Made by a program: the position numbers and the translations under genes. 64,000 nt of DNA from an uncultured Planctomycetales bacterium. GTDB taxonomy: Bacteria; Omnitrophota; Gorgyraeia; Zapsychrales; Fredricksoniimonadaceae. The stretch spans positions 1 through 64,000 of the forward strand of contig CAYTIW010000007.1 of the NCBI GenBank assembly GCA_964438075.1, written 5' to 3'. This document shows, piece after piece, positions 10,249 to 41,759 of the stretch. Position 1 is the first letter of the stretch. Each line of letters begins with the position of its first letter. Under the pieces are notes generated by a model. That model searched no databases. It was not told the origin of the DNA and saw only the letters and a program-made list of their open reading frames with translations.

Positions 10249-10263
10249 GATTAGAGGGAGGCC

Positions 10264-10482: not shown

Positions 10483-10485
10483 TCG

Positions 10486-10716
10486 ATGCAATTTCAGTAT
10501 TGGCCCGAAGGATTGATATTTATAGCCCTGTTCACGTTTATTATCGGGTTCCCCTGTGTCATGGTGGCTATATTGGGAACAAAACTTATTAATTATATAG
10601 GTCAGTATCCGTCCAAGTGTGCCAGGCGTCAGATGATAGCGTGTTTGCAGCTTTTTGTGATTGAGCTGATCTCGTTCGCGATCTTGGCGCTTTTTTATCA
10701 TATCTTTTCCGATTAA
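10486..10716 (+). CDS. Small 2-TM membrane protein between the c and b genes (AtpI/AtpR-like position; function unknown)
   Basis: 76 aa with two hydrophobic segments and Arg residues (ARRQMIA) next to the second helix. Starts 4 nt after the c-subunit stop. Far too short to be subunit a. Confidence 0.5.
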   Translation: MQFQYWPEGLIFIALFTFIIGFPCVMVAILGTKLINYIGQYPSKCARRQMIACLQLFVIELISFAILALFYHIFSD

Positions 10717-10730
10717 CAAAGGAGCCGGTC

Positions 10731-11486: not shown

Positions 11487-11498
11487 AAAGAGCTCGTA

Positions 11499-13791
<2,293 letters not shown>

Positions 13792-13793
13792 AG

Positions 13794-15539
13794 ATGTTGA
13801 AGTCAGCGGTAAATAAAGCAGTATGCGAAGCGCTTCTCAAAAGTACTCTTTTGGACGAGCCTAACCTCCAGAAATATGCCGCTGAGGCCCATCGGCTGAA
13901 CCAGAAGATATCCTTTTACCTCGTCCAGCAAGGCATTTTGAAGACCCCCGCCGTTCTCCGGGCCTTGGCAGAACATTTCCACTTGGATATCGTCAATCTG
14001 AAGACGGTCAATGTCGACCGTATGGCCATCGACCGGGTCCCGGTCAAGTTCGCTTCCTATTACCGATTCATGCCCTTGGCCGTGGACGGGAACCGTTTGA
14101 CAGCTGCTGTTTCGGAACCGCTGGATATACATAATCAGGACGACATACGCGCGCATTTAGGCCTGGAACCGCGTTTTGTCCTGGCCTCGCCGTGGGATAT
14201 CGATGAAGCTCTGAAGCGTTATTACGGCCTGGCTTCCGAGACCATTGACCAGATATTGACCAAGGACCCGCAGAAACGGTCGGCCTTTTCCGAAGACCGT
14301 TCTTCCAAGATAGAGGATATCGAGAAGCAGAGCGAAGACCCGTCGGTCACTAAACTGGTCAATCAGATCATTTTGGAGGCCTACCAGAAGCGGGCTACGG
14401 ATATCCACATCGAACCCTACCGTAACCGGGTCCGTTTCCGCTATCGTATCGACGGGGTTCTGCTCGATGCCAATCTCCCTCCGGAAGCAAAGCATTTTCT
14501 CCTGGCCATAATATCGCGTATAAAGATCATGGCCAACCTGACCATCACCGAGAAGCGGCTTCCCCAGGACGGGAGCGCGGTGGTACGCGTGAAGGAACAG
14601 GCCCTGGACCTGCGCGTTTCAACCATCCCCACCCAGCACGGGGAGAGCATGGTCATACGACTTTTGCCGACCACTACCACGCTGCTGGACCTGGAGAAGC
14701 TAGGGTTTAATGCCGATAATGCCAGCAAGTTCAGGGAACTGATACGCCATCCGCATGGCGTTATTTTTGTTACGGGGCCTACCGGTAGCGGAAAGACCAC
14801 CACCTTGTACGCCTGCCTGAACGAGATCAACGACCCGACCCGCAAGATCATCACTATCGAGGACCCGATAGAGTATGAGATGGAGGGGATCACTCAGATA
14901 CAGATCAACTCCGGCATCGATTTCGGTTTCGCGACCGGCTTGCGCAGCATCCTGCGGCACGATCCGGACATCCTCATGGTGGGAGAAGTGCGGGACCGGG
15001 AGACGGCCGACATCGCTATTCGTACTGCCCTGACCGGCCATTTGGTGTTCTCCTCGCTGCACACTAATGATGCCGCAACCGGGGTGACACGCTTGGTTGA
15101 TATGGGGGTGGAACCTTATCTGGTGGCCTCGAGCGTGCAAGCTTTCATTGCCCAGCGTTTGGTGAGGGTCATATGCCCGCAGTGCAAAGAGGAGGACCGC
15201 GAGCCGCTGATGGAGATAAGGAAGGAGATAGCCAGGAGTTTAGGTTTCTCCTCGCTGGATGAAATAAAATTCTTCAAGGGCCGGGGCTGTGACCAATGCA
15301 ACAATACGGGTTATTATGGCCGTACGGCTATTTATGAAATATTGGAGATAACCGAAGCCATCCGCTCCGCGATCCTGGACAAGCCGAGGGCGGAAGAGAT
15401 AAAACGCATAGCCGTACACGGAGGGATGCGCACGCTGCGGCAGGACGGCTGGAAGAACGTTATAGCCGGTGTTACCACTCCGGCCGAGGTCTTGAACGTA
15501 ACGCTTAAGGAGACGGCTGGGGCATCCTCCGCGGTCTAG
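13794..15539 (+). CDS. gspE: Type II secretion / type IV pilus assembly ATPase (GspE/PilB family)
   Basis: N-terminal GspE_N-like region, Walker A GPTGSGKTT, Asp-box, His-box, and a C-terminal tetracysteine CPQC...CDQC. The start codon is 2 nt after the atpD-like stop. Confidence 0.9.
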   Translation: MLKSAVNKAVCEALLKSTLLDEPNLQKYAAEAHRLNQKISFYLVQQGILKTPAVLRALAEHFHLDIVNLKTVNVDRMAIDRVPVKFASYYRFMPLAVDGNRLTAAVSEPLDIHNQDDIRAHLGLEPRFVLASPWDIDEALKRYYGLASETIDQILTKDPQKRSAFSEDRSSKIEDIEKQSEDPSVTKLVNQIILEAYQKRATDIHIEPYRNRVRFRYRIDGVLLDANLPPEAKHFLLAIISRIKIMANLTITEKRLPQDGSAVVRVKEQALDLRVSTIPTQHGESMVIRLLPTTTTLLDLEKLGFNADNASKFRELIRHPHGVIFVTGPTGSGKTTTLYACLNEINDPTRKIITIEDPIEYEMEGITQIQINSGIDFGFATGLRSILRHDPDILMVGEVRDRETADIAIRTALTGHLVFSSLHTNDAATGVTRLVDMGVEPYLVASSVQAFIAQRLVRVICPQCKEEDREPLMEIRKEIARSLGFSSLDEIKFFKGRGCDQCNNTGYYGRTAIYEILEITEAIRSAILDKPRAEEIKRIAVHGGMRTLRQDGWKNVIAGVTTPAEVLNVTLKETAGASSAV

Positions 15540-15634
15540 TGCCTTTTTGCCCATTTTTACTTCAGCCCCCTGTCCTGGTGTTTTGCATCGTTGGGATCGT
15601 TCGATGACTCTAAATAATGAAAGGGGCCGGTCCC

Positions 15635-16846
15635 ATGCCGGTTTTTGCCTATAAAGCCAAAAAAGACAATGCTGAGACGGTCCTGGGCGATATCGTGGCC
15701 CGGGATGCCAACGAGGCTATCGAGATGGTCAGCCGTCGCGGTCTCTTGCCGGTCGCCGTTGAAGAGAAGGAAGGAGAGGGTGCGGCATCTGTATTGGGAT
15801 TGTCTGCCGGAAATGTCCGTCGAAAAGACATCATGGTGTTCACGGGGCAGTTGGTGAGCTTGCTGAAGGCCGGGGTCCCTCTTCTGCAATCGATAGAACT
15901 GTTGTCAAGGAAGACACGCAACGCCAAACTAGCCTATGTTCTGTCCGATATCGCGCTGAACATACGCAACGGCAAAACTTTCTCCGCAGGACTGGAGGAT
16001 CATCCGGATATCTTTGAGCCCCTGTATACGGCTATGGCCCGGGCGGGTGAGGAAGGCGGGAGCATTCGGGAAATGCTGGCTGAGATGGCTGATTATTATC
16101 GCAAGCAGGAAGATATCGCCCTAAAGGTCCGCGGCGCGCTGACTTACCCGGCGGTCATGTTGGTAGCCGGTATCGGCACGGTCATTTTTGTGCTTACTTT
16201 CGTGCTGCCTAAGATCAAGGTGCTTTTCAAGGATATGCATACGGCGCTCCCCTTGCCAACGGTGATAGTACTCAAGTTGAGCGAGATGGTGCAGAATGGG
16301 TGGCCCGTGATCCTGGCTATTGCGGTCCTGGGCGCTTTATCATGGCAATCCCTCCGTCGCATGGCAGCTTTCCGGAGGGCCGTTGGCCAGGTCATTTTTG
16401 CCTTGCCATGGGTAAGGGAGTTTGCCTTGAAAATAGAGATGCAGAGGTTCACCAGGACCATGAGCTTCCTGCTGGAAGGCGGCATCCCTATATTGCGGGC
16501 TTTGGAGCTGGCCATCCCGACACTGTCAAATGAAACTTTGAAGGATGACCTGGGCAAGTGCAAAGATATGATAGCGGACGGCGCCACCTTTGGGGACACG
16601 CTAAGACGTTCCGTTCTCATACCTGATATAGTGCCGTCATTGGTAGCGGTAGGGGAAGAGGCCGGCGCGCTCGCACAATCACTCAGGGATATAGCGGAGA
16701 CTTACGAGCAGGAGATCGGCGAAAGCACCAAGGCCATGTCGACCCTGCTGGAACCGCTCCTGATTCTCCTGGTGGGATCGGTGATAGCCTTCATTGTTTT
16801 TGCTATGTTGATGCCTATATTTCAGATGGATATTTTCGCCCAATGA
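15635..16846 (+). CDS. gspF: Type II secretion inner-membrane platform protein (GspF/PilC family)
   Basis: Start MPVFAYKAKK... is typical of GspF. Two GspF-domain repeats with three TM segments. The ORF track extends 6 codons upstream, but an RBS favours 15635. Confidence 0.85.
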   Translation: MPVFAYKAKKDNAETVLGDIVARDANEAIEMVSRRGLLPVAVEEKEGEGAASVLGLSAGNVRRKDIMVFTGQLVSLLKAGVPLLQSIELLSRKTRNAKLAYVLSDIALNIRNGKTFSAGLEDHPDIFEPLYTAMARAGEEGGSIREMLAEMADYYRKQEDIALKVRGALTYPAVMLVAGIGTVIFVLTFVLPKIKVLFKDMHTALPLPTVIVLKLSEMVQNGWPVILAIAVLGALSWQSLRRMAAFRRAVGQVIFALPWVREFALKIEMQRFTRTMSFLLEGGIPILRALELAIPTLSNETLKDDLGKCKDMIADGATFGDTLRRSVLIPDIVPSLVAVGEEAGALAQSLRDIAETYEQEIGESTKAMSTLLEPLLILLVGSVIAFIVFAMLMPIFQMDIFAQ

Positions 16847-17685
16847 CCCTGACATGGAAGTTCATAGCGCCGGTGGCCGTGTTATGGTTAGTTATGGTTA
16901 TGGGCCCCGCGCGGGCCGTTGAAGAGCCATTTCGTGAACTTAAGGGCGATCATTTTATTGTCAAATATTTGCTTGAGGATGAACGCAGCCGGGCTGTCCA
17001 GATATTAACCCGCGCGGAGTTATATTATAAGAGGGTGGCTGAAAGTATCGGTTATAACCGTTACCAGGAATACTGGACTTGGGAACGGCGCGTGACCGTA
17101 GTTCTTTATCCTGACCAACTGTCCTACGCCAAGTTCACCGGACAGCCACAGTGGTCCAAGGGGTATGCCAGCCGGGATTCCAAACTGTTCAGGACCAAGG
17201 TGATCGTTTCCTATGATGGCCAGCCTGAATTCCTGGAGGAGATATTGCCGCATGAGATCGCACATTTGATCCTGTGGGATTTTCTCGGATTTACCCGTAA
17301 GGTGCCGATATGGTTCGAGGAGGGCTTGGCCCAGCGGGAGGAGGATGGCAAGAGAGCCGTTGTGCAGCAGGCCATGAAGGAAGTTGTCATTTCCGGGAAC
17401 GATATCCCTTTTGCCACCTTCCATGGACTGGATGTGGGCAGGATCACGGACCCGGTGCAGGTTTCATTGTTCTATGCCCAAAGTCTCTCGGTGGTGGAGT
17501 TCATGATCGGTAAATACGGCCGTGATGCTTTCAGGAACTTTTGTCGTGAGATACGGGAAGGCCGGGCGTTCGAGGAGGCTTTGCCCCGCGCCTACCCGGC
17601 CATCTTTCGGACGGTGGATGATCTGGGATCGAAATGGAAGAATTATATGCAGAATGAAGTTGTTTCTTCAGGAGGCGGGCTATGA
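16843..17685 (+). CDS. Secreted gluzincin-like metallopeptidase (HExxH ... E), family uncertain (Peptidase_MA-like)
   Basis: Signal peptide. HEIAHLILWDF followed about 18 aa later by WFEEGLAQ, giving thermolysin-like zinc ligand spacing. Overlaps the gspF stop (ATGA). Confidence 0.5.
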   Translation: MTLTWKFIAPVAVLWLVMVMGPARAVEEPFRELKGDHFIVKYLLEDERSRAVQILTRAELYYKRVAESIGYNRYQEYWTWERRVTVVLYPDQLSYAKFTGQPQWSKGYASRDSKLFRTKVIVSYDGQPEFLEEILPHEIAHLILWDFLGFTRKVPIWFEEGLAQREEDGKRAVVQQAMKEVVISGNDIPFATFHGLDVGRITDPVQVSLFYAQSLSVVEFMIGKYGRDAFRNFCREIREGRAFEEALPRAYPAIFRTVDDLGSKWKNYMQNEVVSSGGGL

Positions 17686-18089
17686 ATAACAGCAGAGGGT
17701 TCACGCTGGCAGAGATAATGCTGGTGGTCATCATAATAGGGGCCTTGGCGGCCATGGTCGTCCCCCGCTTGTCCGGCCGGTCCGAACAGGCCCGTATCGC
17801 CGTAGCCAAGGCGGATATAAAGACCAACATCCCTACCGCTTTAAAAATGTACGAGTTGGACAACGGAATGTATCCAACTACAGAGCAGGGTCTCCAGGCT
17901 CTCCGGGAAAAACCATCGTCCGCCCCGGCCCCCAGGTATTGGCACGGGCCTTATTTGGAACAGGATCCGGTGGACCCTTGGGGTAATCCTTACTTTTACG
18001 AATCACCGGGGACCCATCGCTCAGATTACGACTTATATTCCAAAGGCAAGGACCAGAATTCTCCCGATGGTTACATCACCAACTGGTAA
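17682..18089 (+). CDS. gspG: Major pseudopilin GspG (T2SS)
   Basis: Prepilin leader plus GFTLAEIMLVVIIIG. Conserved GspG core LDNGMYPTTEQGLQAL...GPYL...DPWGNPY.Y.SPG...YDL.S.G.D...DI.NW. AGGAGG RBS. Confidence 0.9.
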   Translation: MNNSRGFTLAEIMLVVIIIGALAAMVVPRLSGRSEQARIAVAKADIKTNIPTALKMYELDNGMYPTTEQGLQALREKPSSAPAPRYWHGPYLEQDPVDPWGNPYFYESPGTHRSDYDLYSKGKDQNSPDGYITNW

Positions 18090-18528
18090 CAGGACCGCCC
18101 ACCGCCGAAGCTTTTTCCCGGACTCAAGGGTGGGGCTGACTTTCGTCGAGGTCATGGTCACCTCGGTAATACTATCGGCGGGGCTGGTGGCGATTTACCG
18201 GTCTTTCTTCATCGCAGCTGACGTCGTGCAGCATCTTTCCAACCGGCTTTACGCCCTGAATCTGCTGGAAAACAAGATCACAACGATAGAAAGGGATTTC
18301 CGGTCGCGGAAAGATTTCGATATCGGCCCCTTGACTGAAGACGCCGTGGTGAATAATCATCCCGTGGTTTTTCAGTATCGAGTGGAACTAAAGCCGGTGG
18401 GCAGTCTTCTGACAGTGTTCCAGCTCGACATTTCCTTGTCCTGGGAGGAAAGGGGAAGGTTTCGGAGCGTTTCCCGTTCGGCCTATTTTTCCGGTGTGAC
18501 CCCCTTGGAAAAGGGGGATGCCTCATGA
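18067..18528 (+). CDS. Minor pseudopilin (GspH/GspI-like)
   Basis: G|LTFVEVMVTSVILSAGL N-terminal methylation-type hydrophobic helix after a basic leader. Operon position. The exact start is uncertain. Confidence 0.55.
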   Translation: MVTSPTGNRTAHRRSFFPDSRVGLTFVEVMVTSVILSAGLVAIYRSFFIAADVVQHLSNRLYALNLLENKITTIERDFRSRKDFDIGPLTEDAVVNNHPVVFQYRVELKPVGSLLTVFQLDISLSWEERGRFRSVSRSAYFSGVTPLEKGDAS

Positions 18529-19148
18529 GCTTTCGACACGAAAGGGGCCTTATGAAATCCTGCCGTAACTCCGGCTTTACTCTGGCCGAGGTCCTTTTGG
18601 TAACGGTCCTTTTCGCTTCCATAGGGCTGGTAGTTTTCAACTGCCTGAACAATGGCCTCAAACTATGGATGAGGAGCCAGAGCCTGGTTGACGAGCAGGA
18701 TGCGATCGTTTTCTTTGACCGTATAGCCGGGCATTTGCGCAACGCCTTCCTTTATTCAGAGATCCAATTTGCCGGAGAGCCTGAACGGCTGGCATTCCCG
18801 ACGGTTGTTTATACCCCAGCGGACCGGGCAAGTTCGCGTGCCTGGGAAGGATACGTGGAACAGATAGGGATGGTCCGGTATTCCTTTGATGTCGCCCGAG
18901 GCAATGTCTTGCGTGAAGAGGCTGATTATTCTCTCGCCACCCGGGGCAGCTTCGGCCCGGCGAGAGTGGAAGTAAAAGGGGTCAAAGACCTCCGTTTCAG
19001 GTATTACTACTCCGGACACACAGAACCTTCCTTGACCGCTCACGATCAAAAGGCGCTGCCGGCCGGGGTGGAGGTGGAGATACGTTTGGCGGGAGACGGC
19101 GCTGAGAAGGTGTTGAAACGCTATGTGCCTATCCCGGCGGGGAGTTGA
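18525..19148 (+). CDS. Minor pseudopilin (GspJ-like)
   Basis: NSG|FTLAEVLLVTVLFASIGLVVF prepilin-type N-terminus. 207 aa. Overlaps the neighbouring genes. Confidence 0.55.
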   Translation: MSFRHERGLMKSCRNSGFTLAEVLLVTVLFASIGLVVFNCLNNGLKLWMRSQSLVDEQDAIVFFDRIAGHLRNAFLYSEIQFAGEPERLAFPTVVYTPADRASSRAWEGYVEQIGMVRYSFDVARGNVLREEADYSLATRGSFGPARVEVKGVKDLRFRYYYSGHTEPSLTAHDQKALPAGVEVEIRLAGDGAEKVLKRYVPIPAGS

Positions 19149-19149
19149 T

Positions 19150-20178
19150 ATGCGGGTATCGTCCAGCCAAGGCGGTTTTATATTGATCTTTACTCTGTGG
19201 GTGCTTGGTTTTCTTTCCGTTCTGGCTATCGCCGTCGGAATGGGTTCCCGGCAGAAGATCGCTTTTCTGGAAAGGCTGGAAGACCGCAGCCGGCAGCACC
19301 TGTCCGCAGAGGCCGGGGCCAAGAAGGCGCTCGCTTTGTTGGTCGACGATATCGAGAACAACAAGTTGGCTTTTAACGCCGAGGCCAAGTCCCGTAGGCA
19401 TAATAATCCGGCTGATTTCTCCGGCATTGTTGTCGGCGATAACGGATTCGATGTCTTACACACGGTTTATGACGAAACATCCGGCGCCATGGTGGAACGC
19501 TATGGGGTTTCCGACGAGCAGGGAAAACTCAACCTTAACAACGTCAGTGGCGAACAGCTGGCCAGGCTCTTGGCAGACGTTTTGGGCATGACGACCGAAG
19601 AGGCGCGGAAACAGTCCCAGGCTATTATAGACTGGCGCGATTATGGCAAACATGAAGCCGAAGGTTTTTTTAGCGACGATTATTATAAGAATCTCGAGCA
19701 TCCTTATGAGATGAAGGAGAAGCCCTTCGAACGCATCGATGAACTCTTGCTGGTGAAGGGGCTTGATAATAATAAGTACCATAAATTGCTGCCGTTCGTC
19801 ACGGTATGGGGAGATGGCAGGGTGAACATCAATACCGTTTCGGAGAGGGTCCTCGTTGCGCTGGGGCTGGATCCGGCAGTGGCAGAAAAGGTCCTTAAGG
19901 TCCGCCGGGGAACGGATGACCTTGAATCTACCAGCGACGACCATATATTCACCCGGGCTTTTGATGTTGCCGTTGAGGTCAAGGCGGTCTTGCCTCTGGA
20001 AGAACGCGAGATGCGGCAGATCGACGCCCTTAACACCCGCGGGCTGTTGTCGGCCAATTCTTTTTTGTATTCCATTCGAAGCCGGTCATTGCTGGCTGAC
20101 GGAAAAACAGGCGGGGCAGAAGTGAACATGGTTTTTGATGCTTTGGCCAATAAAATCGTATTCTGGTTCGAAAAATAA
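19150..20178 (+). CDS. gspK: Minor pseudopilin GspK-like
   Basis: N-terminal hydrophobic helix GGFILIFTLWVLGFLSVLAIAVG. About 340 aa with HhH-like segments (ERVLVALGLDPAVAEKVLKVRRG). ATG at 19150 has a GGGGAG RBS; the ORF track begins at 19123. Confidence 0.5.
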   Translation: MRVSSSQGGFILIFTLWVLGFLSVLAIAVGMGSRQKIAFLERLEDRSRQHLSAEAGAKKALALLVDDIENNKLAFNAEAKSRRHNNPADFSGIVVGDNGFDVLHTVYDETSGAMVERYGVSDEQGKLNLNNVSGEQLARLLADVLGMTTEEARKQSQAIIDWRDYGKHEAEGFFSDDYYKNLEHPYEMKEKPFERIDELLLVKGLDNNKYHKLLPFVTVWGDGRVNINTVSERVLVALGLDPAVAEKVLKVRRGTDDLESTSDDHIFTRAFDVAVEVKAVLPLEEREMRQIDALNTRGLLSANSFLYSIRSRSLLADGKTGGAEVNMVFDALANKIVFWFEK

Positions 20179-20244
20179 ATCAGTTTTGGGTTGATTGACG
20201 GAAAAAGCTTAGTCTATAATGTAGCCATCAAATGCGGAGAAAAC

Positions 20245-21744
20245 ATGAAGCTTAAGCGGTCGCGATTCGTCAGCATAGCCATAAGTGCGACTTCGGTAAA
20301 GGTCGCTCTGATCAAAAGTTCAGGTTCCGTCGAGAGACTGGTAATCCGTAATATCGACAAGGGCAGTCCCGACAGCGCGCTGCAATCTGCTCTCACCGGC
20401 CTGCCAGTGAAAGGCGCGGATATCCTTTGTGTGATCCCGGGTGAGGTGGCGACTACCAAGAACTTGGAGATCCCCTCAGTCGATCATGAAGAAATTGAAT
20501 CTATCCTGGCCCTGCAGGCCTCCCGGCATACTCCTTTCAACAAAGACGAGATATTGACCTCTTATATCAAACTCGGCAACCCGAGATCAAATTTTACCCG
20601 GGTATTAATGATCGTTGTCAAACGGGACACCGTGAAAGATAAACTGGCTATCATCAAGCGCGCCGGTCTCAATATCAGCACGGTCATGTTCGTGCCTGAG
20701 GGCGTTGCGCGTTTTTATGCCGCGGCTCTCAAGGTGAAGAAGAACGATCTGCCGCTTGCGATAGTCGATGTCGGACTGCAGAACACGAATTTCATGATCG
20801 AATCGCAATCCACGATCGTGATGTCACGCAATATACCCATTGGCATTCAGCAATTTGGCACCGACACTGAAGCGTCCAACTTTCTGGTCAAAGAGATCAA
20901 GGCCTCCATGGATACTTATGAACAGGAGTCCGTCGACCGCAAGCCGGGACGTTTTATCCTTACTTCTAAACATGTGGCCTTGTCCGGGTTGGAGACGCAC
21001 ATCGCGGCCATTATGCCCGGCGCCCGTTGCGAAATCGTACCCTACCAGAATTTAGTGAAGTCAGGCAAGGAGGTTAAAGAAGTACTGGCGAAGAGTTTTT
21101 CCGATGATTCCGCGCTGGACGTCATCGCTCCGGCGGTGGTGGCGGCGAAATGTCAGGCCGAACTGGTCCCGCAGGATATCAAGGACCAGCGGGCGATCGT
21201 TGAAAAGGGACGGGCGACCTATATAGCGGGTGTGCTGATCACGCTTTTGTTGCTTTCGGTAGGAGGGGCTGTGATGAGCAAACTTTATTACAAGGATACT
21301 TTCCTGAAAAGGAACCTGATCGCCAAGTACGCCTCCCAAAAGCAGGAAGTCAAGGACATCGAGACTTTGATGCGCAAGACCAAGATCCTGCGTGAATATA
21401 TGCAGACCCGCGACATAGCGCTGGAATCTATCCGTGAACTCTATCGGCTCACTCCACCGGAGATCTATTTCAATAACATCAGCCTGGATGAGGCTGACGG
21501 CAGTGTTTCGATCCAGGGGATAGCCGATGACATGTCGAACGTGTTTTCCTTCGTGCCCGCACTTGAGGCGTCCGCATTGTTCGAGGGAGTTAAGACCAAG
21601 TCCACTTCGACGAAGAAAGACCGTGAAAAGACCGTGGCGGCATTCGAGATCGTGATGCAGTTGAGCAACCCCGACGGCAGAACAAAAGCCAAGCCGGTGA
21701 GTGAGGCGTCGGCTTCACCGGCGAAAACTGAGAAGGCAAAATAA
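20245..21744 (+). CDS. GspL/PilM-PilN-like bitopic assembly protein (cytoplasmic actin-like domain, one TM helix, periplasmic domain)
   Basis: N-terminal region resembles the PilM/GspL cytoplasmic domain. Single TM helix (YIAGVLITLLLLSVGGAVM) at about residue 340. ATG at 20245 has a GGAGA RBS. Confidence 0.55.
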   Translation: MKLKRSRFVSIAISATSVKVALIKSSGSVERLVIRNIDKGSPDSALQSALTGLPVKGADILCVIPGEVATTKNLEIPSVDHEEIESILALQASRHTPFNKDEILTSYIKLGNPRSNFTRVLMIVVKRDTVKDKLAIIKRAGLNISTVMFVPEGVARFYAAALKVKKNDLPLAIVDVGLQNTNFMIESQSTIVMSRNIPIGIQQFGTDTEASNFLVKEIKASMDTYEQESVDRKPGRFILTSKHVALSGLETHIAAIMPGARCEIVPYQNLVKSGKEVKEVLAKSFSDDSALDVIAPAVVAAKCQAELVPQDIKDQRAIVEKGRATYIAGVLITLLLLSVGGAVMSKLYYKDTFLKRNLIAKYASQKQEVKDIETLMRKTKILREYMQTRDIALESIRELYRLTPPEIYFNNISLDEADGSVSIQGIADDMSNVFSFVPALEASALFEGVKTKSTSTKKDREKTVAAFEIVMQLSNPDGRTKAKPVSEASASPAKTEKAK

Positions 21745-21755
21745 GGAGTCCCGCC

Positions 21756-22391
21756 TTGATCAATAATTTTATATCCGGACTGAAACCGGGCCAAAGGAAG
21801 GTGCTGGCGGTCCTGGCCGTTGTGCTCATATTGGGCCTGTTCGGGGGCATATTCCTTTATCCGGCTTGGAAAAGTTCGAACAAGATCGACGAATTGATCG
21901 CCAAGGAAAAGGAGACCGTCCGTAAGAACGCCCTTTTCTTGGCGAAACGCGAAAAAGCCGTGAAGGAAGCCGCGGTGTTCAAGGATTATTTCACTAAAGA
22001 TGTGCGGAGTGAAGAGGAGGTGATCGCGGACCTTCTCAAGAGGCTTTTGCAGCTGGCCAATAATTCCGGGGTGCAGGTATCTAAACTTTCCACGCCTGTG
22101 CAGGAAATGCAAAAGGATTATCTATTGTATGTGGTTTCGGCAGACTGTACGGGCACATTAGAAAACCTGACCAATTTTATCTTCGCGATAAACAACTCCC
22201 CGGAATTGATCAAGGTCTCCAAGATGCACCTGGGGAGCAGTGCGAATGCCAAGAATGCCGGAACCATACAGGCCAGTCTGACCATATCCAAGATGATCAT
22301 CGGTGCCGATCCATCCGTCGAGGCAAAGAAACTTGTACGTGTCCAGGAAAAGAAAGAAGCGGCGAAGCCCGCTGCCACATCCAAGGAATAG
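21756..22391 (+). CDS. GspM/PilO-like bitopic protein
   Basis: Single N-terminal TM helix (VLAVLAVVLILGLFGGIFLY), then a ~180-aa periplasmic domain. TTG start with an AGGAG RBS directly after the GspL-like gene. Confidence 0.5.
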   Translation: MINNFISGLKPGQRKVLAVLAVVLILGLFGGIFLYPAWKSSNKIDELIAKEKETVRKNALFLAKREKAVKEAAVFKDYFTKDVRSEEEVIADLLKRLLQLANNSGVQVSKLSTPVQEMQKDYLLYVVSADCTGTLENLTNFIFAINNSPELIKVSKMHLGSSANAKNAGTIQASLTISKMIIGADPSVEAKKLVRVQEKKEAAKPAATSKE

Positions 22392-22425
22392 TCTTTTAGC
22401 CGCCGGCGTTTCGCCTGTCCCCATT

Positions 22426-23232
22426 ATGTCTCCACCATCCCGGATATTAATTAAGAAATCATTCCTTGTCCGCCTGATCTTCCTCCTGGTCTATTTCTGG
22501 TCCTTGCCTTGCCCGGCGGTGGAGGTCACGAAGGAGAATCTATTCCAGCTGGCCACTTTGGCTCTCAAGGATGGGGAATATGAGCATGCGGTGGAGTTCT
22601 TCAAAAAAGCCATCGAGTTAGATCCTAAATTCATCCCGGCCTACAACAGCCTCGGCATAATTTATGAGACCTCTGGTTTAAAGGACCTTAAAGAGGCGAT
22701 CCGTTATTTCAAACTGGCCACGGAGATATCCCCGTCGTCTCAGGAGAGCTGGAACAATCTGGGCCGCGCCTATTACAGCAAAGGCGAGTTCACCCAGGCG
22801 GAAAGGGCCCTTTTGCGTTCATTGGAGCTCGATCCGGCCCAGCCGGAGGTGGAGGTCTCGTTGGGATGGATCTATCTGCTGGGCCAGTCGCGAGGTGCCG
22901 AGGCTATCAGTCATTTTGAAAAAGGCGGGGCGTATAAGGATAACCCCATGGTCTATTACGGCATGGGGCTGTCCTACCTCATCAAGGGTGAGCGTTTCAA
23001 GGTGCTTGATTCCATTACTGAGCTGCGCAAGAGAAAGAGGGAAGACCTCGCGCTCAGGCTGGAGGATATGGTAAAGAACAAGATAAAGCTGTCCTCGCAG
23101 GAGGGTACTCCGTTGATCACGGGCCTGGGGGCTGAACACTCGGCACTGAAAGAGGAACTCAAGGCGATGGGGAGATCTGATGGAGATACCGACGGAATAA
23201 AGGTGCGGTTGCGGGGGCCGATCCGGTATTGA
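22426..23232 (+). CDS. TPR-repeat protein with N-terminal signal/anchor
   Basis: Hydrophobic N-terminus, then at least four TPR-like units (AVEFFKKAIELDPKFIPAYNSLG..., AIRYFKLATEISP..., AERALLRSLELDP...). The start codon is uncertain and the frame is open from 22303. Confidence 0.55.
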   Translation: MSPPSRILIKKSFLVRLIFLLVYFWSLPCPAVEVTKENLFQLATLALKDGEYEHAVEFFKKAIELDPKFIPAYNSLGIIYETSGLKDLKEAIRYFKLATEISPSSQESWNNLGRAYYSKGEFTQAERALLRSLELDPAQPEVEVSLGWIYLLGQSRGAEAISHFEKGGAYKDNPMVYYGMGLSYLIKGERFKVLDSITELRKRKREDLALRLEDMVKNKIKLSSQEGTPLITGLGAEHSALKEELKAMGRSDGDTDGIKVRLRGPIRY

Positions 23233-23287: not shown

Positions 23288-24949
23288 ATGGGACAGCTGG
23301 TTAACAGGATCAATAAATATTTCCTTGACCGGGCAGAGTTGTGGATACTGGGCCTGGGCATTTTGCTGCGATTGAAGCATTACCTCGAGAACCGTTCTTT
23401 GTGGCTGGATGAAGCTTGCGCGGCTGTCAGCGTGGCCAGCCGCAGCTATAACGAGATATTGAGCCATTATGAGGTCATGCCGGAGTTCGCGCACCCTCCG
23501 ATGGTCTTCATGCTGATAGAGCGTTCACTGGTAGACCTCTTCGGCAATAACGAGATGTCATTGCGGTTGTTCCCGTTGCTTTGCGGGATCGCCGCCCTGT
23601 TGCTCTTTTTCCTGCTGACCCGCAGCATCCTTCCGCGGGGGGCGTTCCTGCTGGCACTGGCTCTCTTCGCCGTGATCGACCCCTTGGTCTATTATTCCGC
23701 CGAGCTTAAGCAGTATTCTACCGACCTGGCGGTCATGATAGCTCTTTTGTTCTATAGCGAGGAATTCATCAAGGAGAAATGCTGCTGGATAAAGGCCGGT
23801 GTCCTGGCATTGCTGGGAGCGGCGGTATTATGGCTTTCCAACGCCATGGTCTTTATGCTGGCATCCATGGCCGCGGTATTTCTCTGGAGGGCGGTCAGGC
23901 GCAGGGATTGGGCCGAACTTTTACGTCTGGGGAGCGCCTTTTTTGTGTGGGCGGCCAGTTTCGCGGCGGTTTATCATTTGTCCTTGGGCCATATGGTCGG
24001 GAATGATAAACTTAAGGCTACTTGGGAAGGAGCCCTTTTCAAGGGAAGTCTTTTTTCCGGCGACGCCTTGGCCTGGCTCTGGCAGGTGGTGAGCGAAAGT
24101 TTCCGCAATCCCTTGGGGCTGGCCTGGCCCTTGGCTGGGGCCGTTCTCTTTGTGGTCGGTGTGCTCAGCCTGGTCCGGAACAACTCTGCACGTGCGGCGC
24201 TGCTGGCGTTGCCTATATTTTTTGCTTTGGTGGCCGGCTGGCTAGGCAAGTATCCTTTTCGAGGCCGGGTGCTGCTTTTTTTGGTGCCCTGTTATCTGGT
24301 GCCTATCGCGGCTGGCGTTGAGGCCATAGCGGCAAAGATCGGGAATAAACGCTCCCATCGCGCCGTATGGGCGATATTGGCCATAGCGCTTCTGGCGTAT
24401 CCTCTTCAGGTCGCGGCGCGGAACTTCATTCAGGGCCGCGAATGGGTGGAGAACCGCCCGGCAATGGAGTTCTTTCGGGACCATTATGAGCCGGGGGATT
24501 TCGTGGTGATGAACACCTCGGCCCAGCCGCCGTTCTGGTATTATGTCGGCAGCCTGGGTATCGGGGTCGAACTGCGGCGTGAACCCATCGGCCGGTTGGA
24601 TGGCAAGACGGTGGAAGGGATGCGGGTCGCCAAGTTCGCCCGGGACATGGTAGCCACCAAGGACGGCCACCGTTTGGTAGCTTTCAGGTATGAGTACCAC
24701 ATTTTTAATGAGAAAGGCCTTTTCCGCCAGATGGTGCTCCGTAATGCCCGGGAGGCGTATTTCGTCCGCGACGACAGGGCAGTGGAGGGCCTTCCTGCCG
24801 GGAGGGTCTGGCTGGTGCTGTCCCAAGCCCCGGAGGATGACGACCGCGAGATCAACGGCATCATCCGGGATGCGTTTGACCGGCGGGCGAAAAGGCTGCT
24901 GAGCTGCGAACGTATGAATGCAGCTGTGTACTTATATGACATGCAATAG
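23288..24949 (+). CDS. GT-C fold membrane glycosyltransferase (ArnT/PMT-like, GT39/GT83-type)
   Basis: 553 aa, about 11 predicted TM helices. DE motif directly after TM1 (WLDEACAAV), typical of PMT/ArnT-type enzymes. Soluble C-terminal domain. Followed by a polyprenyl-phosphate sugar synthase-like GT2 gene. Confidence 0.5.
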   Translation: MGQLVNRINKYFLDRAELWILGLGILLRLKHYLENRSLWLDEACAAVSVASRSYNEILSHYEVMPEFAHPPMVFMLIERSLVDLFGNNEMSLRLFPLLCGIAALLLFFLLTRSILPRGAFLLALALFAVIDPLVYYSAELKQYSTDLAVMIALLFYSEEFIKEKCCWIKAGVLALLGAAVLWLSNAMVFMLASMAAVFLWRAVRRRDWAELLRLGSAFFVWAASFAAVYHLSLGHMVGNDKLKATWEGALFKGSLFSGDALAWLWQVVSESFRNPLGLAWPLAGAVLFVVGVLSLVRNNSARAALLALPIFFALVAGWLGKYPFRGRVLLFLVPCYLVPIAAGVEAIAAKIGNKRSHRAVWAILAIALLAYPLQVAARNFIQGREWVENRPAMEFFRDHYEPGDFVVMNTSAQPPFWYYVGSLGIGVELRREPIGRLDGKTVEGMRVAKFARDMVATKDGHRLVAFRYEYHIFNEKGLFRQMVLRNAREAYFVRDDRAVEGLPAGRVWLVLSQAPEDDDREINGIIRDAFDRRAKRLLSCERMNAAVYLYDMQ

Positions 24950-24960
24950 GAAGAAATGAT

Positions 24961-25767
24961 ATGGCTATTGAAGTAGCGGTGATCATCCCGAGCTATAATG
25001 AACGTCCCAACGTCAAACCCATGCTGGAAAAACTAAGGGTTGCGCTCAATGGTATAGAGTGGGAAGTGATATATGTTGACGATAATTCTCCCGACGGCAC
25101 AGCTGAATGCGTATGGGAAGAGTCGCGCCTCGACCCAAGGGTCCGCTGCCTCAAGCGTATCGGCCGGCGCGGCCTGTCTTCCGCCTGCATCGAGGGCATG
25201 CTGTCCACTGCGGCGCCGTTCATGGCGGTGATGGATGGCGACCTTCAGCATGATGAAACTATCCTGCCCGATATGCTGGGGGCCCTCAGGACGGGAAAAG
25301 TGGATGTCATCGTCGGGAGCCGTTATGTGGCTGGGGGGGGCATAGAGGATTGGGCATTGCATCGCCAAGCGGCCAGCCGGTGGGCCACGCGTTTCGCCCA
25401 GTCAGTGGCCGGCATCCAGCTGCAGGACCCGATGAGCGGTTTTTTCATGCTGCGGAGGGATTTCTTCCAGAAATGCGTCGGTCAAATAAGCGGCAAAGGA
25501 TTCAAGATACTGTTGGATATCCTGATGTCTTCGCGGGAAAAGGTGAATGTGATAGAGATACCTTACAAGTTCCGGATGCGCCAGCACGGTAAAAGCAAGC
25601 TGACGCCGAAGGTCATCCTGGACTATTTCTACCTGGTGTTCTACAAGATCTGCCAACGCAATCCTTGGTTGCTCTGGTTACTGGTTTCCACTGTGATATT
25701 GCTGATGCTGGCGCTAGGGGCGCGCATGCACCTTTCCACCCCGATGGTAAAGACGACCTGGTGGTAA
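24961..25767 (+). CDS. GT2 polyprenyl-phosphate glycosyltransferase (Dpm1/ArnC/GtrB-like)
   Basis: VIIPSYNE...YVDDNSPDGT...DGDLQHDE (DxD region), a GT-A fold, and C-terminal TM helices as in ArnC/GtrB. Confidence 0.75.
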   Translation: MAIEVAVIIPSYNERPNVKPMLEKLRVALNGIEWEVIYVDDNSPDGTAECVWEESRLDPRVRCLKRIGRRGLSSACIEGMLSTAAPFMAVMDGDLQHDETILPDMLGALRTGKVDVIVGSRYVAGGGIEDWALHRQAASRWATRFAQSVAGIQLQDPMSGFFMLRRDFFQKCVGQISGKGFKILLDILMSSREKVNVIEIPYKFRMRQHGKSKLTPKVILDYFYLVFYKICQRNPWLLWLLVSTVILLMLALGARMHLSTPMVKTTWW

Positions 25768-25810
25768 ATGTAGACTGATCCGAGTTGTCAGGTCTGGTTC
25801 TTATCAAAAT

Positions 25811-25850
25811 AAAAAAACCTTCTTCCGGAATGGAAGAAGGTTTTTTGTTT
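25811..25850. terminator. Bidirectional rho-independent terminator (9-bp GC-rich stem CCTTCTTCC/GGAAGAAGG, 5-nt loop, flanked by an A-run and a T-run)
   Basis: aaaaaaaCCTTCTTCCggaatGGAAGAAGGttttttgtttt, lying between the end of the + operon and the tRNA on the minus strand. Confidence 0.8.
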
Positions 25851-25894
25851 TGATGAGGCCGGACCTTTCGGCACGATGTCCGGCATATAAAAAC

Positions 25895-25971
25895 TGGTGG
25901 ACCGGATGGGGGTCGAACCCACGACCTCCTCATTGCGAACGAGGCGCTCTCCCAAACTGAGCTACCGGCCC
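25895..25971 (-). tRNA. tRNA-Ala (anticodon CGC), CCA encoded
   Basis: The reverse complement folds as a 77-nt cloverleaf: acceptor GGGCCGG/CCGGTCC with G3:U70, D-arm GCTC/GAGC, anticodon stem CCTCG/TGAGG with loop TTCGCAA, and T-arm GTGGG-TTCGACC-CCCAT. Confidence 0.85.
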
Positions 25972-26086
25972 ATATAGTGTATAAATATGTTCGAGCTGAA
26001 AATTTGCTCGAGAGGGGATATAGTAACAAAAGCATGGTAAAAAAACAAGTGTCTATCCGCGAAAACAAGAGCCCGCTCCGGCAGTC

Positions 26087-28618
26087 TTAGAGATCCTTGG
26101 GCCAGGATACTTCGTAGAGGTAGACGCGCGTCCGACCCGTGAGGTCGCGTTCGAGAGCGAAAGGATGGAAATATTTCAGCCCTTTGCCTTCGAAATAATA
26201 CATTTTGACTACCAGCGAATTGGCCAGGACCCGGTCCATCAGGACGACTTTGGGAATGCCTTCGTCCTTATAAAACACCAGGGAGTATCCCAGGTTAGCC
26301 CCGGACAATTTTTTCTCTACCACCGCTTTCTGATCATCGTCCAGGTAGACCACGCTTTGCGGTATGCCGCGGCCGAACTTTGGCGAATCTATCGTGGCGG
26401 TCATATCGGCCGTGTTTACGACAATGCCGTTCTCAAATATTATTTTAGGCCCGTCGCTGGCCATCGCCCCGATGGACTGCGATTGTTTGAAAGGCCCGCC
26501 GACCAGGCTCCAGAGGAAATCGACAAAGCCGGGAGAGGATTTTCCCGGCACTTTACTCAGCGCTTCCGGGTCCCGGTTGAGCCTTTCGATCTTGGCGAAG
26601 TCCCATTTTCCCACATATCCCAGCAGCACGTTCCCTTCGACTATTTCATGGTAGATGAGAACGTAGGAAGGAGGTGGCACGACCGCGCTGCCGTGGGTCA
26701 GGCTCAAAAGATGCGTGACATTCTGTTGGGGAAGGACCTTCAGGAGCGCTCGTTCCGCCTCGGCTTTTTTTAACCTGGTGATCTCTAAGATCAGCGGTAC
26801 CGCCTTGGATAGCGGCAGGTCCAGGCTTTGCAGGTATTCGGCGGCGCGGTTAGAACTGGTATTCAGCATGCGCAGTATACCCAGGGCATCACGTTCGTTC
26901 TGCGCCAGGTATACCTTGGTCATCCAGAATCCCTGTTCGCCGCGTATAGAGGCGCCGTCAAAGGTTACACGCCGCCGGCTGACGGCCTTGACAAAATGGC
27001 CCGGCGACCACCAGGTATTGACGATACTGTCGGGAGGGGAGTAGTCGCGCAGGCGGGTCAGCGCACGATCCCAAGTGGAATTGAAAATGGGGTTCAACAG
27101 CGAGCGTATAGTGGTATGGCTGATGATGATCGGCAAAGCCACCGATACTATTATGAGCGTCCCGAGGATCTTTTCCAGCATCACGGCGGGTTTCTCTGAC
27201 AGTCTGAACAGACCCGATAGCGCATGGCGGCCTTGCCAAATTTGATCCAACCCCAGAGCGAACAGGAGCGCGACGGGGGTGACGCTCAGCATGGCGAAAC
27301 GCTGGGCGCTCAGGCTGAGCACCAGGGTGCTGGCAAGGAAAATGGCCAGAGTGATCATTTCATCAGAAGGCGCTTTGCGTTTGAGCAGGGACATGACACC
27401 GAACCAGACCAGGGTGGCAATTGCCCCGAAGAATGGCACGGGCCCGCCGTTGAACTCCACGATCTCTTTCAGCGTGGCACGTTTCAGTTCTCCCACGACT
27501 ATGAAGAGGTCCGGCCAGTCCTTGAGCCTGGGGGCGGTGAATTTTTGCAGTTCTCCCCAGGCCGCGGTCATAGTCTCGAAGAACTGCGGCAGGCCGATCA
27601 TCATAGTGACGGCCAGCACAGGCACGGCGATGAACAGGGCCAACAAAAACCCTATACGCGGCAGGCGCTGCTCTTTCAGCAGCCAGGCCTTGCCGGCGAT
27701 GAGAACGACCGAGAAGACGGTCAGCGCCCAAAGATATCCCCAGCCCGGCCAGAAACGGGAATACAAGGCCGCTGTTAACGCCGAGAGAACGGAGAACAGG
27801 AGCAGTCGCCGCTTCTCGCTGGTGTTTTTAAGCGCCAGGAAGAAGAATGCCAGGCCAAGGAGCGGGAAAAGCACGGTATAGGTGTCGTTGTCGTACCAGG
27901 CATAGGTGCTGCGTTTAAGATATATCTGGGAAAGGACAAAAAAGACGCCAGCCGTGAAAGAGGAAAGCGGCGAACAGCCCATAGCATGGCAGGCCAGCAG
28001 GAATGCGGCTACCACCAGCGGCAAAAGGAAGATAGGGGTCCAGGCCACCCCGGACATAAGGTCGGTATCCGGAGCCAAGGCCCGTACGGTCCGGTATACC
28101 CAGGCTCCGACGTAAGGATGCCAGAGCTGGGGTTCCCAGAATCCCAGGGGAGCCAGCATCAGGTTGTTGAAATAGCGGCTGCCCTTAACCTGAGGGCTTA
28201 CGTCGCCTTCTTTCAGGATGTTCTCTGTTAAGTTCAGGAAATAATAGGAGTCTGACTCCTGCAGATAGCGTTTCTGGTTACCGGACCGCTGCGAGAGCTC
28301 ATATCCCAGCTCATCGAAAGCCTTGCGGAGTTTGGCATTATCCTTGCGTATTATCTCGTTGACCTTGGCGGATAAAAGGAGTGTCTTCTTGGCCGGAGGC
28401 AGCTCAGGGTACTGGGCATTGATTTGGGCGGCTATCTTGCTTCGCAAGTGGTTTATGACCAGGAGAGTGGCCTGTTCGTAGGCGTCCGAGGCAACATTGT
28501 GATATAGGGGATACAGGCGTACCTGTATCCCGATCATGCATATTGCCAAACCTATTAAGAGCCAGGTGATAAGTTTTCGCAGGGGATATCCGTTGGGCAT
28601 GGGGTCTGTTTGATTCAA
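26087..28618 (-). CDS. Large polytopic GT-C membrane protein, STT3/PglB/AglB-like oligosaccharyltransferase candidate (N-terminal ~13 TM helices, C-terminal ~330-aa soluble domain)
   Basis: 843 aa. Acidic motif in the first extracytoplasmic loop (ESDSYYF). A WWSPG sequence sits directly after the last TM helix, where STT3 enzymes carry WWDYG. TTG at 28618 or ATG at 28600. Confidence 0.45.
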   Translation of the reverse strand: MNQTDPMPNGYPLRKLITWLLIGLAICMIGIQVRLYPLYHNVASDAYEQATLLVINHLRSKIAAQINAQYPELPPAKKTLLLSAKVNEIIRKDNAKLRKAFDELGYELSQRSGNQKRYLQESDSYYFLNLTENILKEGDVSPQVKGSRYFNNLMLAPLGFWEPQLWHPYVGAWVYRTVRALAPDTDLMSGVAWTPIFLLPLVVAAFLLACHAMGCSPLSSFTAGVFFVLSQIYLKRSTYAWYDNDTYTVLFPLLGLAFFFLALKNTSEKRRLLLFSVLSALTAALYSRFWPGWGYLWALTVFSVVLIAGKAWLLKEQRLPRIGFLLALFIAVPVLAVTMMIGLPQFFETMTAAWGELQKFTAPRLKDWPDLFIVVGELKRATLKEIVEFNGGPVPFFGAIATLVWFGVMSLLKRKAPSDEMITLAIFLASTLVLSLSAQRFAMLSVTPVALLFALGLDQIWQGRHALSGLFRLSEKPAVMLEKILGTLIIVSVALPIIISHTTIRSLLNPIFNSTWDRALTRLRDYSPPDSIVNTWWSPGHFVKAVSRRRVTFDGASIRGEQGFWMTKVYLAQNERDALGILRMLNTSSNRAAEYLQSLDLPLSKAVPLILEITRLKKAEAERALLKVLPQQNVTHLLSLTHGSAVVPPPSYVLIYHEIVEGNVLLGYVGKWDFAKIERLNRDPEALSKVPGKSSPGFVDFLWSLVGGPFKQSQSIGAMASDGPKIIFENGIVVNTADMTATIDSPKFGRGIPQSVVYLDDDQKAVVEKKLSGANLGYSLVFYKDEGIPKVVLMDRVLANSLVVKMYYFEGKGLKYFHPFALERDLTGRTRVYLYEVSWPKDL

Positions 28619-28636: not shown

Positions 28637-29380
28637 TTACTTTTTTTTGCCTGGCTTATCAAGGCTAATATCAGCAAAGTGGATCTTGTCGGCCGGGACC
28701 GCGAAGAGTTCCCGCTCCGCCGAAAGCCGTTTGGAACTGATGAGCCCGATGAGGCGGCCGGCACGATCGAAGACCGGTCCGCCGCTGTCACCGGAATAGT
28801 GGTTGATGTTCAGGCGCAACAGTTCGACTTTAAGGCCCCGTTCAGTCCGTCGGGTGGCAAGCCCGGATATTATACCGCCGGATATGGTGCCCCTTAAGAG
28901 GTCTGAATGACCAATAGTGGTGATCTTTTCCCCCAGAACGGTCTGGTTCGGTTCAGCGAATTCGACCGCTTTAAGCGGGCGGTCTGTTCTGATCTGGAGA
29001 ATGGAAAAATCGTCTTCTCTGGATATAAAGAGTATGCGGGCCGGGATCTCTTTACCGTCTCGGAAGGTCACTAGGATCTCCTGTGATCCGAATATGATAT
29101 GGGTGTTGGTGACGATATGGCCGTCGGAGGATATTATCACCCCGGCACCTTTTTTTTCCTGGAATTGCAGCCTCCTCGCGGTCATTGCCATCAGGCCTCC
29201 GGTCCGGGGATCTACCGTGACCCGGGCATCCGGGACAGAGGCCATCTGGTAGGTCTTGCCGGTGACGGTCACGACAGAATCGTACTTGTTCTGCAGCAGC
29301 TCAATGGCATTCATTTCGGCCGCCGGAGATGGTCCCGCAGCCAGGAATGTGAGGAGGGCCAGGAAGAAAGCGATAGGCAT
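28637..29380 (-). CDS. Secreted trypsin-like serine protease (S1C/DegP-like catalytic domain, no PDZ)
   Basis: Signal peptide. Catalytic triad context TNTHII, DFSILQI and GDSGGPVFD. Confidence 0.7.
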   Translation of the reverse strand: MPIAFFLALLTFLAAGPSPAAEMNAIELLQNKYDSVVTVTGKTYQMASVPDARVTVDPRTGGLMAMTARRLQFQEKKGAGVIISSDGHIVTNTHIIFGSQEILVTFRDGKEIPARILFISREDDFSILQIRTDRPLKAVEFAEPNQTVLGEKITTIGHSDLLRGTISGGIISGLATRRTERGLKVELLRLNINHYSGDSGGPVFDRAGRLIGLISSKRLSAERELFAVPADKIHFADISLDKPGKKK

Positions 29381-41662: not shown

Positions 41663-41759
41663 GATTGCATGTTTCTGCCTTTGGGCCTGCCAATAACCTG
41701 TCGGAGCGATCTTTGTCCGGCCTTTACCTCACGGGTCATTAAGAAATACAACACCGTCG

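Follow-up and report, generated by a model that had tools for sequence, protein, structure and literature searches.

The motif WWD(Y/F/W)G is, to our knowledge, regarded as a hallmark that all N-oligosaccharyltransferases share across the three domains of life and as the explanation of the N-x-S/T sequon, and the locus analyzed here raises the question of what an enzyme of this family does when the Asp of the motif is gone. The protein in question is an 843-aa membrane protein encoded in a stretch of 64,000 nucleotides (hereafter the window) of contig CAYTIW010000007.1 (GenBank assembly GCA_964438075.1), from an uncultured bacterium placed by GTDB in the phylum Omnitrophota. The original prediction for positions 23,288 to 28,618 of the window described this protein as STT3-like with WWSPG in place of WWDYG, and grouped it with a type C glycosyltransferase (GT-C) and a family 2 glycosyltransferase (GT2). 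Homology and predicted fold place the 843-aa protein in the STT3 superfamily. It is most likely similar to the canonical oligosaccharyltransferases (OSTs) on the donor side and different from them on the acceptor side. The label of a canonical OST is withheld because the WWD Asp, a defining feature of N-oligosaccharyltransferases, is absent. Our preferred reading, to which we give about an even chance, is an active transferase of the STT3 type whose acceptor recognition has changed and whose acceptor is probably a protein, and which would work with a secreted S1 serine protease encoded next to it.

Family, fold and motifs of the STT3-like protein

The 843-aa protein matches the Pfam family STT3 (PF02516) with an E-value of 9.9e-21, and a profile of its family compared with PDB sequences found human STT3A (4e-25), AglB of A. 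fulgidus (AfAglB; 5e-18) and PglB (5e-12). The AlphaFold2 (AF2) model, for which the input alignment held 46 sequences, reached a pLDDT of 90.3 and a pTM of 0.87. It consists of about thirteen transmembrane (TM) helices followed by a mixed alpha/beta C-terminal periplasmic domain (residues ~510-843), and the first external loop (EL1) carries a long insert of three helices (residues ~40-115). In a Foldseek comparison of the model with the PDB, PglB of Campylobacter lari was found first (E 6e-19, TM-score 0.66-0.68), and the STT3 proteins of yeast and human and then AfAglB came next; the top nineteen matches were PglB, STT3 or AglB without exception, and DPY19, AftA and ArnT were weaker than the OSTs by many orders of magnitude. 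The predicted fold is that of an OST-type GT-C and not a non-GT-C fold. The OST-like architecture that had been read from the sequence, with an acidic Asp in EL1, about 13 TM helices, a WW-x-x-G motif after the last of them and a periplasmic domain of ~330 aa, was recovered as well, and the identity of all three glycosyltransferases was borne out by Pfam, by profile and PDB matches and by the structure models.

Positions 26993-27019 of the minus strand translate to NTWWSPGHF, and the WWSPG stretch was found by both phmmer and profile search to align to the WWDYG of C. jejuni PglB, P. furiosus AglB and human STT3A, with WWSPGHF placed on WWDYGYQ in the profile alignment to STT3A. Motif states were counted in a joint alignment of 271 sequences containing 212 members of the variant clade to which the window protein belongs and 58 canonical relatives. 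Both Trp residues are invariant in the variant clade (212/212), and the position of the WWD Asp is occupied by Pro (123), Ser (64), Ala (15), Thr (5) or Cys (5) and never by Asp. The residue that follows, an aromatic in the canonical motif, is Pro in all but two of the variant members (210/212). The closest canonical relatives, by comparison, keep the Asp in 58 of 58 sequences (WWD[F/Y]GH). The motif of the clade as a whole is WW[P/S/A/T/C]PG[H/Y] with the consensus WWPPGH, and the earlier observation that WWSPG replaces WWDYG is correct for the window protein while describing only a subclade form.

The candidate catalytic residues (Table 1) were observed to be far less variable. D123 in EL1, E377 and R440 are invariant in all 212 variant and all 58 canonical sequences. 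E377 is assigned to the TIXE-type Glu of the fifth external loop (EL5) by its position, as HMMER gave no alignment there, and the position of R440 is one that we take to be equivalent to R375 of PglB, the donor-phosphate-binding Arg. The second DXD motif is less uniform; D245 is kept in 210 and D243 in 186 of the 212 variant members, and a few members also lack the second Asp. Lys or Arg occupies the first Asp position in 26/212 sequences (12%; for example L008, L016 and P0005) in several contexts (FKDD, YKND, FRTD and YKNS), which may represent a charge substitution for the metal ligand. The DK-like motif of the C-terminal domain retains W in 209, D/N in 207 and K/R in 178 of the 212 sequences. 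A candidate counterpart of DGGK or DNXTZNX[T/S] is the stretch F-D554-G555-A-S, in which D and G are invariant and there is no Lys. In known OSTs the WWDYG motif, whose Asp contributes to binding of the +2 Ser/Thr, and the DK or MI motif form the Ser/Thr pocket, and the definition of the DK motif used here is taken from the same paper (PMC8342417).

Among 20-aa windows of the variant clade, the WWxPGHF...FDG block was found to be the most conserved (3.55 bits against a mean of 2.06), and the second DXD block, the EL1 Asp block and EL5 ranked second, fourth and seventh among the top eight. Because the WW block and the catalytic motifs are the most conserved regions and D123, E377 and R440 are invariant, these patterns argue for an active site that has been remodelled under selection rather than one in decay. 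A catalytically dead pseudo-enzyme, kept as a membrane scaffold, is on the same grounds highly improbable, even though it would accord with the loss of a residue from the hallmark motif and with Lys or Arg at the second DXD motif in 12% of the members.

The motif states bear equally on the possibility of an ordinary OST that carries out general periplasmic N-glycosylation at N-x-S/T, in which the two Trp residues and the DK-like Lys/Arg would bind the +2 Ser/Thr and the Asp would be dispensable. We consider this unlikely, since the Asp is missing from every variant sequence, its commonest replacement is Pro, which is incapable of hydrogen-bonding, the adjacent aromatic has also become Pro, and the Asp is invariant in the 58 nearest canonical relatives; nor does a classical pgl/agl-type cluster lie beside the gene, unlike in the two canonical-relative contigs examined. 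Its merits are that all catalytic motifs and the two Trp residues are kept, that the DK-like [DN]xx[KR] is mostly kept, that the fold is the same as in PglB and AglB, and that the window protein has Ser at the third position of the motif.

The comparison with known systems gives a similar picture. PglB of Campylobacter (C. lari and C. jejuni) is the best structural match and resembles the 843-aa protein in being a single-subunit, periplasmic enzyme of a diderm bacterium with homologous catalytic motifs. The two are 13-14% identical, and PglB has WWDYG, an MI motif and a pgl gene cluster, whereas the 843-aa protein has WWSPG, a DK-like motif and a long insert in EL1, and no cluster for glycan assembly adjoins its gene. 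The best profile-to-sequence match was to eukaryotic STT3 (human STT3A, yeast Stt3), with the EL1 Asp aligned and RSVAGSYDNE corresponding to RSTxxWYDND. It differs in being part of a multisubunit complex and in having WWDYG and DNNTWNN, for which the presumed equivalents here are WWxPG and FDGAS.

Under our preferred reading of an active transferase with altered acceptor recognition, the enzyme would draw its glycan off a polyprenyl-(di)phosphate carrier at the inner membrane's periplasmic face, and the donor side would use the conserved acidic and Arg residues D123, D243xD245, E377 and R440. The WWD Asp and the aromatic next to it have given way to a fixed WW-x-P-G-[H/Y] pocket, and the acceptor would no longer be read through the hydroxyl of a +2 Ser/Thr. 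It would most likely be a single exported protein, or a small number of them, with a non-classical recognition element. Homology, fold, motif states, conservation and synteny are observed here, while the catalytic activity, the type of donor, a protein as acceptor and the partnership with the protease are inferred.

Distribution and origin of the variant clade

A word-indexed search found 41 close homologues of the 843-aa protein (33-97% identity), and nearly all the named ones are from metagenome-assembled genomes (MAGs) of Candidatus Omnitrophota. At least 551 relatives were found in a scan of one genome per GTDB species; the best 80 of these are almost all from Omnitrophota and the remainder are MAGs with placeholder or doubtful labels. 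An exhaustive profile search was carried out over 1.8 billion cluster representatives, and two groups stand out among the best 150 matches, one of about 840 aa with WW[P/S/A/T/C]PG[H/Y] and the other of about 900-1200 aa with WWD[F/Y]GH. The variant clade (213 sequences) is monophyletic in a neighbour-joining tree and no canonical sequence lies inside it, which indicates that the motif change happened once.

Wherever the source of a canonical WWDFGH relative is named, it is Woesearchaeota of the DPANN archaea. These AglBs with a long EL1 are the nearest sequence relatives of the 843-aa protein (23-27% identity, profile scores of 640-740 bits) and share with its clade the long helical EL1 insert, the D, DXD, E and R residues, WW..GH, the FDG block and the DK-like motif. 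Canonical relatives of this type differ in having the WWD Asp and an aromatic fourth residue (58/58) and in their length (median 1009 aa compared with 841 aa in the variant clade). Two canonical-relative contigs were examined and contain GT2 genes, and a flippase gene in one of them, with no S1 protease or genes similar to those of a type II secretion system (T2SS), unlike the loci of the variant clade. The best explanation of these sequence relationships is a single origin of the variant clade from an AglB like those of present-day DPANN archaea (Woesearchaeota), with the gene now a core gene of Omnitrophota, and the position of Woesearchaeota as sister group suggests transfer from archaea to bacteria. 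Two canonical WWD relatives, P0043 and P0044 (loci L087 and L088), also gave weak or faint matches to Pfam PF27869 (HaoB_nitrify), which hints that HaoB of ammonia oxidisers may share a region with these long-EL1 STT3 proteins.

Among the papers that could be searched, none was found to connect Omnitrophota or Omnitrophica with STT3 or an oligosaccharyltransferase, and in two Omnitrophota genomics papers on T2SS-like loci near giant genes STT3 is not mentioned. Many Omnitrophota have been proposed to be predatory or host-dependent nanobacteria, and the enzyme would provide the first clue that proteins (or the envelope) are glycosylated in this uncultured phylum. A large clade in which the catalytic residues are under strong selection and the motif is fixed in a Pro-containing form would also amount to a natural experiment on how acceptor specificity is encoded, and glycoengineering might draw on it for OSTs with a new site preference.

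Neighbouring genes and possible acceptors

Synteny was counted by tblastn of the window proteins against 80 genome loci, 70 of which were informative for the protease and 67 for the neighbouring operon. In 59 of the 70 loci, the gene directly upstream of the STT3-like gene is that of the S1 protease, in the same orientation. In the window the STT3-like gene starts at TTG 28618 or possibly at ATG 28600, and the distance to the protease stop is 18-36 nt accordingly; with the two genes on the same strand, the co-transcription that had been proposed for them is likely. The protease has a signal peptide, matches the DegP/HtrA family (9e-28) and keeps the triad H94/D124/S199 in 64-67 of 67 orthologues.

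A T2SS-like type IV filament operon ends convergently with the STT3-like gene within 5.5 kb in 56/67 loci. It comprises genes for GspE, GspF, Peptidase_MA_2, GspG, two minor pseudopilins, GspK, a PilM-PilN fusion, a GspM/PilO-like protein and a TPR protein (PilW/Tgl-like); neither a secretin nor a prepilin peptidase is present within the operon of the window. Four of the five annotated contigs have the S1 gene and then the STT3-like gene, convergent with GspE-GspF-Peptidase_MA_2-GspG-minor pseudopilins-GspK-PilMN-PilO-TPR, and their far flanks differ. Nine informative loci have no adjacent T2SS-like operon, and the S1-STT3 pair is intact in seven of these, followed downstream by unrelated genes (sensor kinases, diguanylate cyclases and others). 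Because the pair persists where other neighbours change, the co-oriented S1 protease and STT3-like genes constitute a robust unit. The enzyme would work together with the probably co-transcribed periplasmic protease, which could be a processing partner or a substrate of the enzyme.

Some features of these operons were observed in passing. Peptidase_MA_2, a zinc metallopeptidase-like protein encoded at 16843-17685 (+) between GspF and GspG, is not a usual T2SS component and keeps this position in most Omnitrophota loci. The GspE proteins of more distant Omnitrophota loci (L003 and L005; ~740-747 aa) carry a C-terminal PilZ (c-di-GMP-binding) domain, which is absent from the GspE of the window (13794-15539, 581 aa). 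One of the loci without an adjacent T2SS-like operon (L018) encodes, after a diguanylate-cyclase-like open reading frame (ORF) downstream of the STT3-like gene, another large polytopic membrane protein of 570 aa (7403-9115) that appears by eye to be of the GT-C/YfhO type.

The gene for the ATP-synthase beta subunit lies immediately upstream of GspE in 7/7 loci that leave over 600 bp of space for it and in 13/14 that leave over 130 bp, and ends 3 nt before GspE in the window. As the ATP-synthase operon is equally fixed beside the T2SS-like operon, the ATP synthase, T2SS-like and STT3-S1 genes form a block that reads as frozen Omnitrophota gene order, and conserved synteny was rejected as decisive proof of a link to the T2SS-like machine. 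The conserved junction between the beta subunit and GspE was seen in L023, L059, L061, L066, L075, L076 and L083. The F-type ATP-synthase operon of the window (8449-13791, +) has an unusual order, namely alpha, epsilon-like, c, a small TM protein, b/delta (OSCP), gamma and beta.

A link between the STT3-like enzyme and the neighbouring machine may exist. As a sub-case of our preferred reading, the enzyme could be a dedicated modifier of this machine that glycosylates a pseudopilin, an assembly component or a secreted cargo, in analogy to AglB acting on archaeal pilins and archaellins and TfpW/TfpO acting on Pseudomonas pilins. The convergent arrangement in the 56 loci spans protein identities of 33-97% while the other flank varies, the relatives are archaeal AglBs, and the GT-C/GT2 pair has been inserted at exactly this junction in one subclade. 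This role nevertheless seems doubtful to us, as the genes are convergent and not co-oriented, the equally fixed and unrelated ATP-synthase operon allows for frozen synteny, the pseudopilins have no conserved N-x-S/T, and the S1-STT3 pair is kept in loci whose T2SS operon lies at another place.

Pilins, the giant repeat protein encoded at the start of the window and the cell envelope had been named as possible targets. A search for conserved N-x-S/T in the orthologues of GspG, the minor pseudopilins, GspK, the PilO-like protein, the TPR protein, Peptidase_MA_2 and the S1 protease across the 80 loci found none. The sole frequent sequon in the operon proteins is N134 of PilMN (49/58), which is located in PilM, a cytoplasmic domain. 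The major pseudopilin is an ordinary GspG, and the suggestion that pilins are the targets is without support from the sequons.

The giant protein fared no better. Its sequons number 67 against 45 ± 6 expected, and all but three are NW[TS] in a 15-aa repeat (64). The residue after NW varies freely in this repeat (T/S/A/L/Y/M/N/D/E/G). Since NW[TS] falls on a freely variable position, these sites are a by-product of the repeat and not evidence of sequon selection. The ATP-synthase operon also separates the giant gene from the secretion operon. The protein itself (1-7083, +; more than 2360 aa, cut by the start of the window) contains approximately 150 tandem repeats of 15 aa, G-[IV]-N-W-x-D-[IL]-x-x-[LM]-[ST]-x-x-x, with 7% Trp, 9% Asn and a coiled-coil-like C-terminus; its Pfam matches contain no significant stretch and represent artefacts of low complexity. 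Given the loss of the WWD Asp, a count of N-x-S/T sequons may in any case not be the right test.

The lack of conserved sequons in the neighbouring exported proteins would also fit a non-protein acceptor, in which a glycan linked to undecaprenyl diphosphate is transferred to some lipid or glycan, for instance to lipid A-core, to a glycolipid or to an envelope polymer, by an enzyme that resembles an O-antigen ligase on an STT3 scaffold. The loss of the +2 pocket Asp, the partial loss of the canonical metal ligand in 12% of the members and the occurrence as a core, single-copy-like gene across a diderm phylum point the same way. This alternative is nonetheless improbable in our view. The WW block and the DK-like motif, both of which belong to the site that binds the peptide in known OSTs, show the highest conservation in the protein, the presumed EL5 Glu is kept, and the pairing with a protease suggests a protein substrate. 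We also know of no STT3-family member with a non-protein acceptor.

Several observations weigh against our preferred reading of an active transferase with altered acceptor recognition. Conserved adjacency is weak evidence of function here, given the equally strict adjacency of the ATP-synthase and T2SS-like operons. The canonical metal coordination is not universal in the clade, as the first Asp of the second DXD motif is replaced in the 26 sequences mentioned above. The Ser at the third WW position of the window protein could still donate a hydrogen bond and could allow some N-x-S/T activity. Finally, no initiating phosphoglycosyltransferase, flippase or cytoplasmic glycosyltransferases for assembling a lipid-linked oligosaccharide were found in the rest of the window.

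A more far-reaching version of the same reading is put forward only tentatively. The protein would be a core OST of Omnitrophota, acquired once from DPANN-type archaea, that has abandoned N-x-S/T for a new determinant or a non-Asn residue. It would form a two-gene unit with the periplasmic serine protease, possibly maturing components or cargo of the T2SS-like machine, and would represent the first case of a different acceptor code in the STT3 family.

The GT-C/GT2 pair and other features of the window

The ORFs and the tRNA that had been listed for the locus were all found at their positions (Table 1). A gap of 55 nt separates the GT-C gene from the TPR gene at the end of the T2SS-like operon, the GT2 gene comes after a further gap of 11 nt, and a strong terminator hairpin lies behind the pair.

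Table 1. Coordinates of genes, motifs and other elements at the STT3-like locus (positions in the window; nt and residue numbering of the 843-aa protein for motifs)
Feature	Position	Strand	Evidence or remark
T2SS-like type IV filament operon	13794-23232	+	GspE to TPR gene; no secretin
GT-C, 553 aa, Pfam PMT_2	23288-24949	+	ORF list; Pfam 2.9e-8
GT2, 268 aa, Dpm1/DPMS-type polyprenyl-phosphate-hexose synthase	24961-25767	+	Glycos_transf_2 5.9e-29
Bidirectional intrinsic-terminator hairpin, 15-16 bp stem, T-runs on both strands	25812-25846	.	Between the convergent units
tRNA-Ala(CGC), downstream of the STT3-like gene on the same strand	25895-25971	-	ARAGORN
STT3/AglB/PglB-family GT-C, 843 aa	26087-28618	-	Pfam STT3 9.9e-21
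DK-like (DxxK) motif W672-D-F-A-K676, C-terminal domain	26591-26605	-	Manual alignment to yeast DDINKFLWM; presumed equivalence
WWSPG, residues 536-540	26999-27013	-	Position of the WWDYG sequon-binding motif (+2 Ser/Thr)
R440 (QRF), candidate donor-phosphate-binding Arg	27299-27301	-	Presumed equivalence
E377 in VGELK, read as EL5 TIXE/SVSE-type catalytic Glu	27488-27490	-	TM9-TM10 loop of the model
D243-N-D245, second DXD motif, within RSTYAWYDND	27884-27892	-	Aligns to eukaryotic RSVAGSYDNE
D123, first catalytic Asp in EL1	28250-28252	-	Aligns to STT3A D49
Secreted S1 serine protease, 247 aa, HtrA-like, without PDZ	28637-29380	-	Trypsin_2 1.7e-24

The 268-aa GT2 matches the Dol-P-Man synthase of P. 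furiosus (PDB 5mlz) with 4.8e-45 over residues 3-227, and one C-terminal hydrophobic TM helix is visible in its sequence. The 553-aa GT-C is annotated as GT39 in databases, and its loop-1 D41/E42 motif is at least 90% conserved in 50 homologues. Its AF2 model (pLDDT 96) ends in a beta-rich periplasmic domain of about 150 aa. Foldseek matches of this model to OST, ALG9/12, ArnT and Pmt4 were similarly weak (E 1e-4 to 1e-6, TM-score 0.4-0.6), and the protein does not cluster solely with the lipid A/arabinose transferases. No MIR domain was found in it by Pfam and a sequence search of the PDB gave no match. With generic GT-C matches only and no MIR domain, a specific assignment as a protein O-mannosyltransferase or as ArnT was not adopted.

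Following the classical logic of such pairs, the GT2 would make a polyprenyl-phosphate-hexose in the cytoplasm and the GT-C would use it in the periplasm. In TfpW, the pilin arabinosyltransferase of P. aeruginosa that is encoded at a type IV filament locus, and in the actinobacterial Ppm1/Pmt, a polyprenyl-phosphate-monosaccharide from a GT2 or its equivalent is likewise used by a GT-C at the periplasmic face. These systems are functional analogies only, as the Foldseek matches are generic and no specific sequence or structural relationship to them was found.

The pair occurs in just nine of the 67 related loci, all but one of which (L032) belong to the subclade closest to the window. The view of the three glycosyltransferases as one module does not survive this distribution; the conserved unit is the S1 protease with the STT3-like protein, and the GT-C/GT2 pair is a lineage-specific insertion at the end of the operon, separate from that unit.

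A second PMT_2 GT-C of 481 aa is encoded in the window at 41760-43205 (-). It is followed by a 493-aa protein without a Pfam match and by a B12-binding radical SAM enzyme (38694-40184), the whole region spanning 38694-43205 (-). An association of this kind between radical SAM enzymes and glycosyltransferases recurs at the canonical STT3 relative P0043 (L087, 3601-7099), which is followed by a GT2, a B12 radical SAM enzyme and another GT2.

The stretch 52000-56000 of the window has a GC content of 0.395 compared with approximately 0.53 elsewhere and contains four ORFs on the minus strand. Three of them (52581-53432, 54126-54689 and 54708-55490) are without a Pfam match, and the stretch may have been acquired horizontally.

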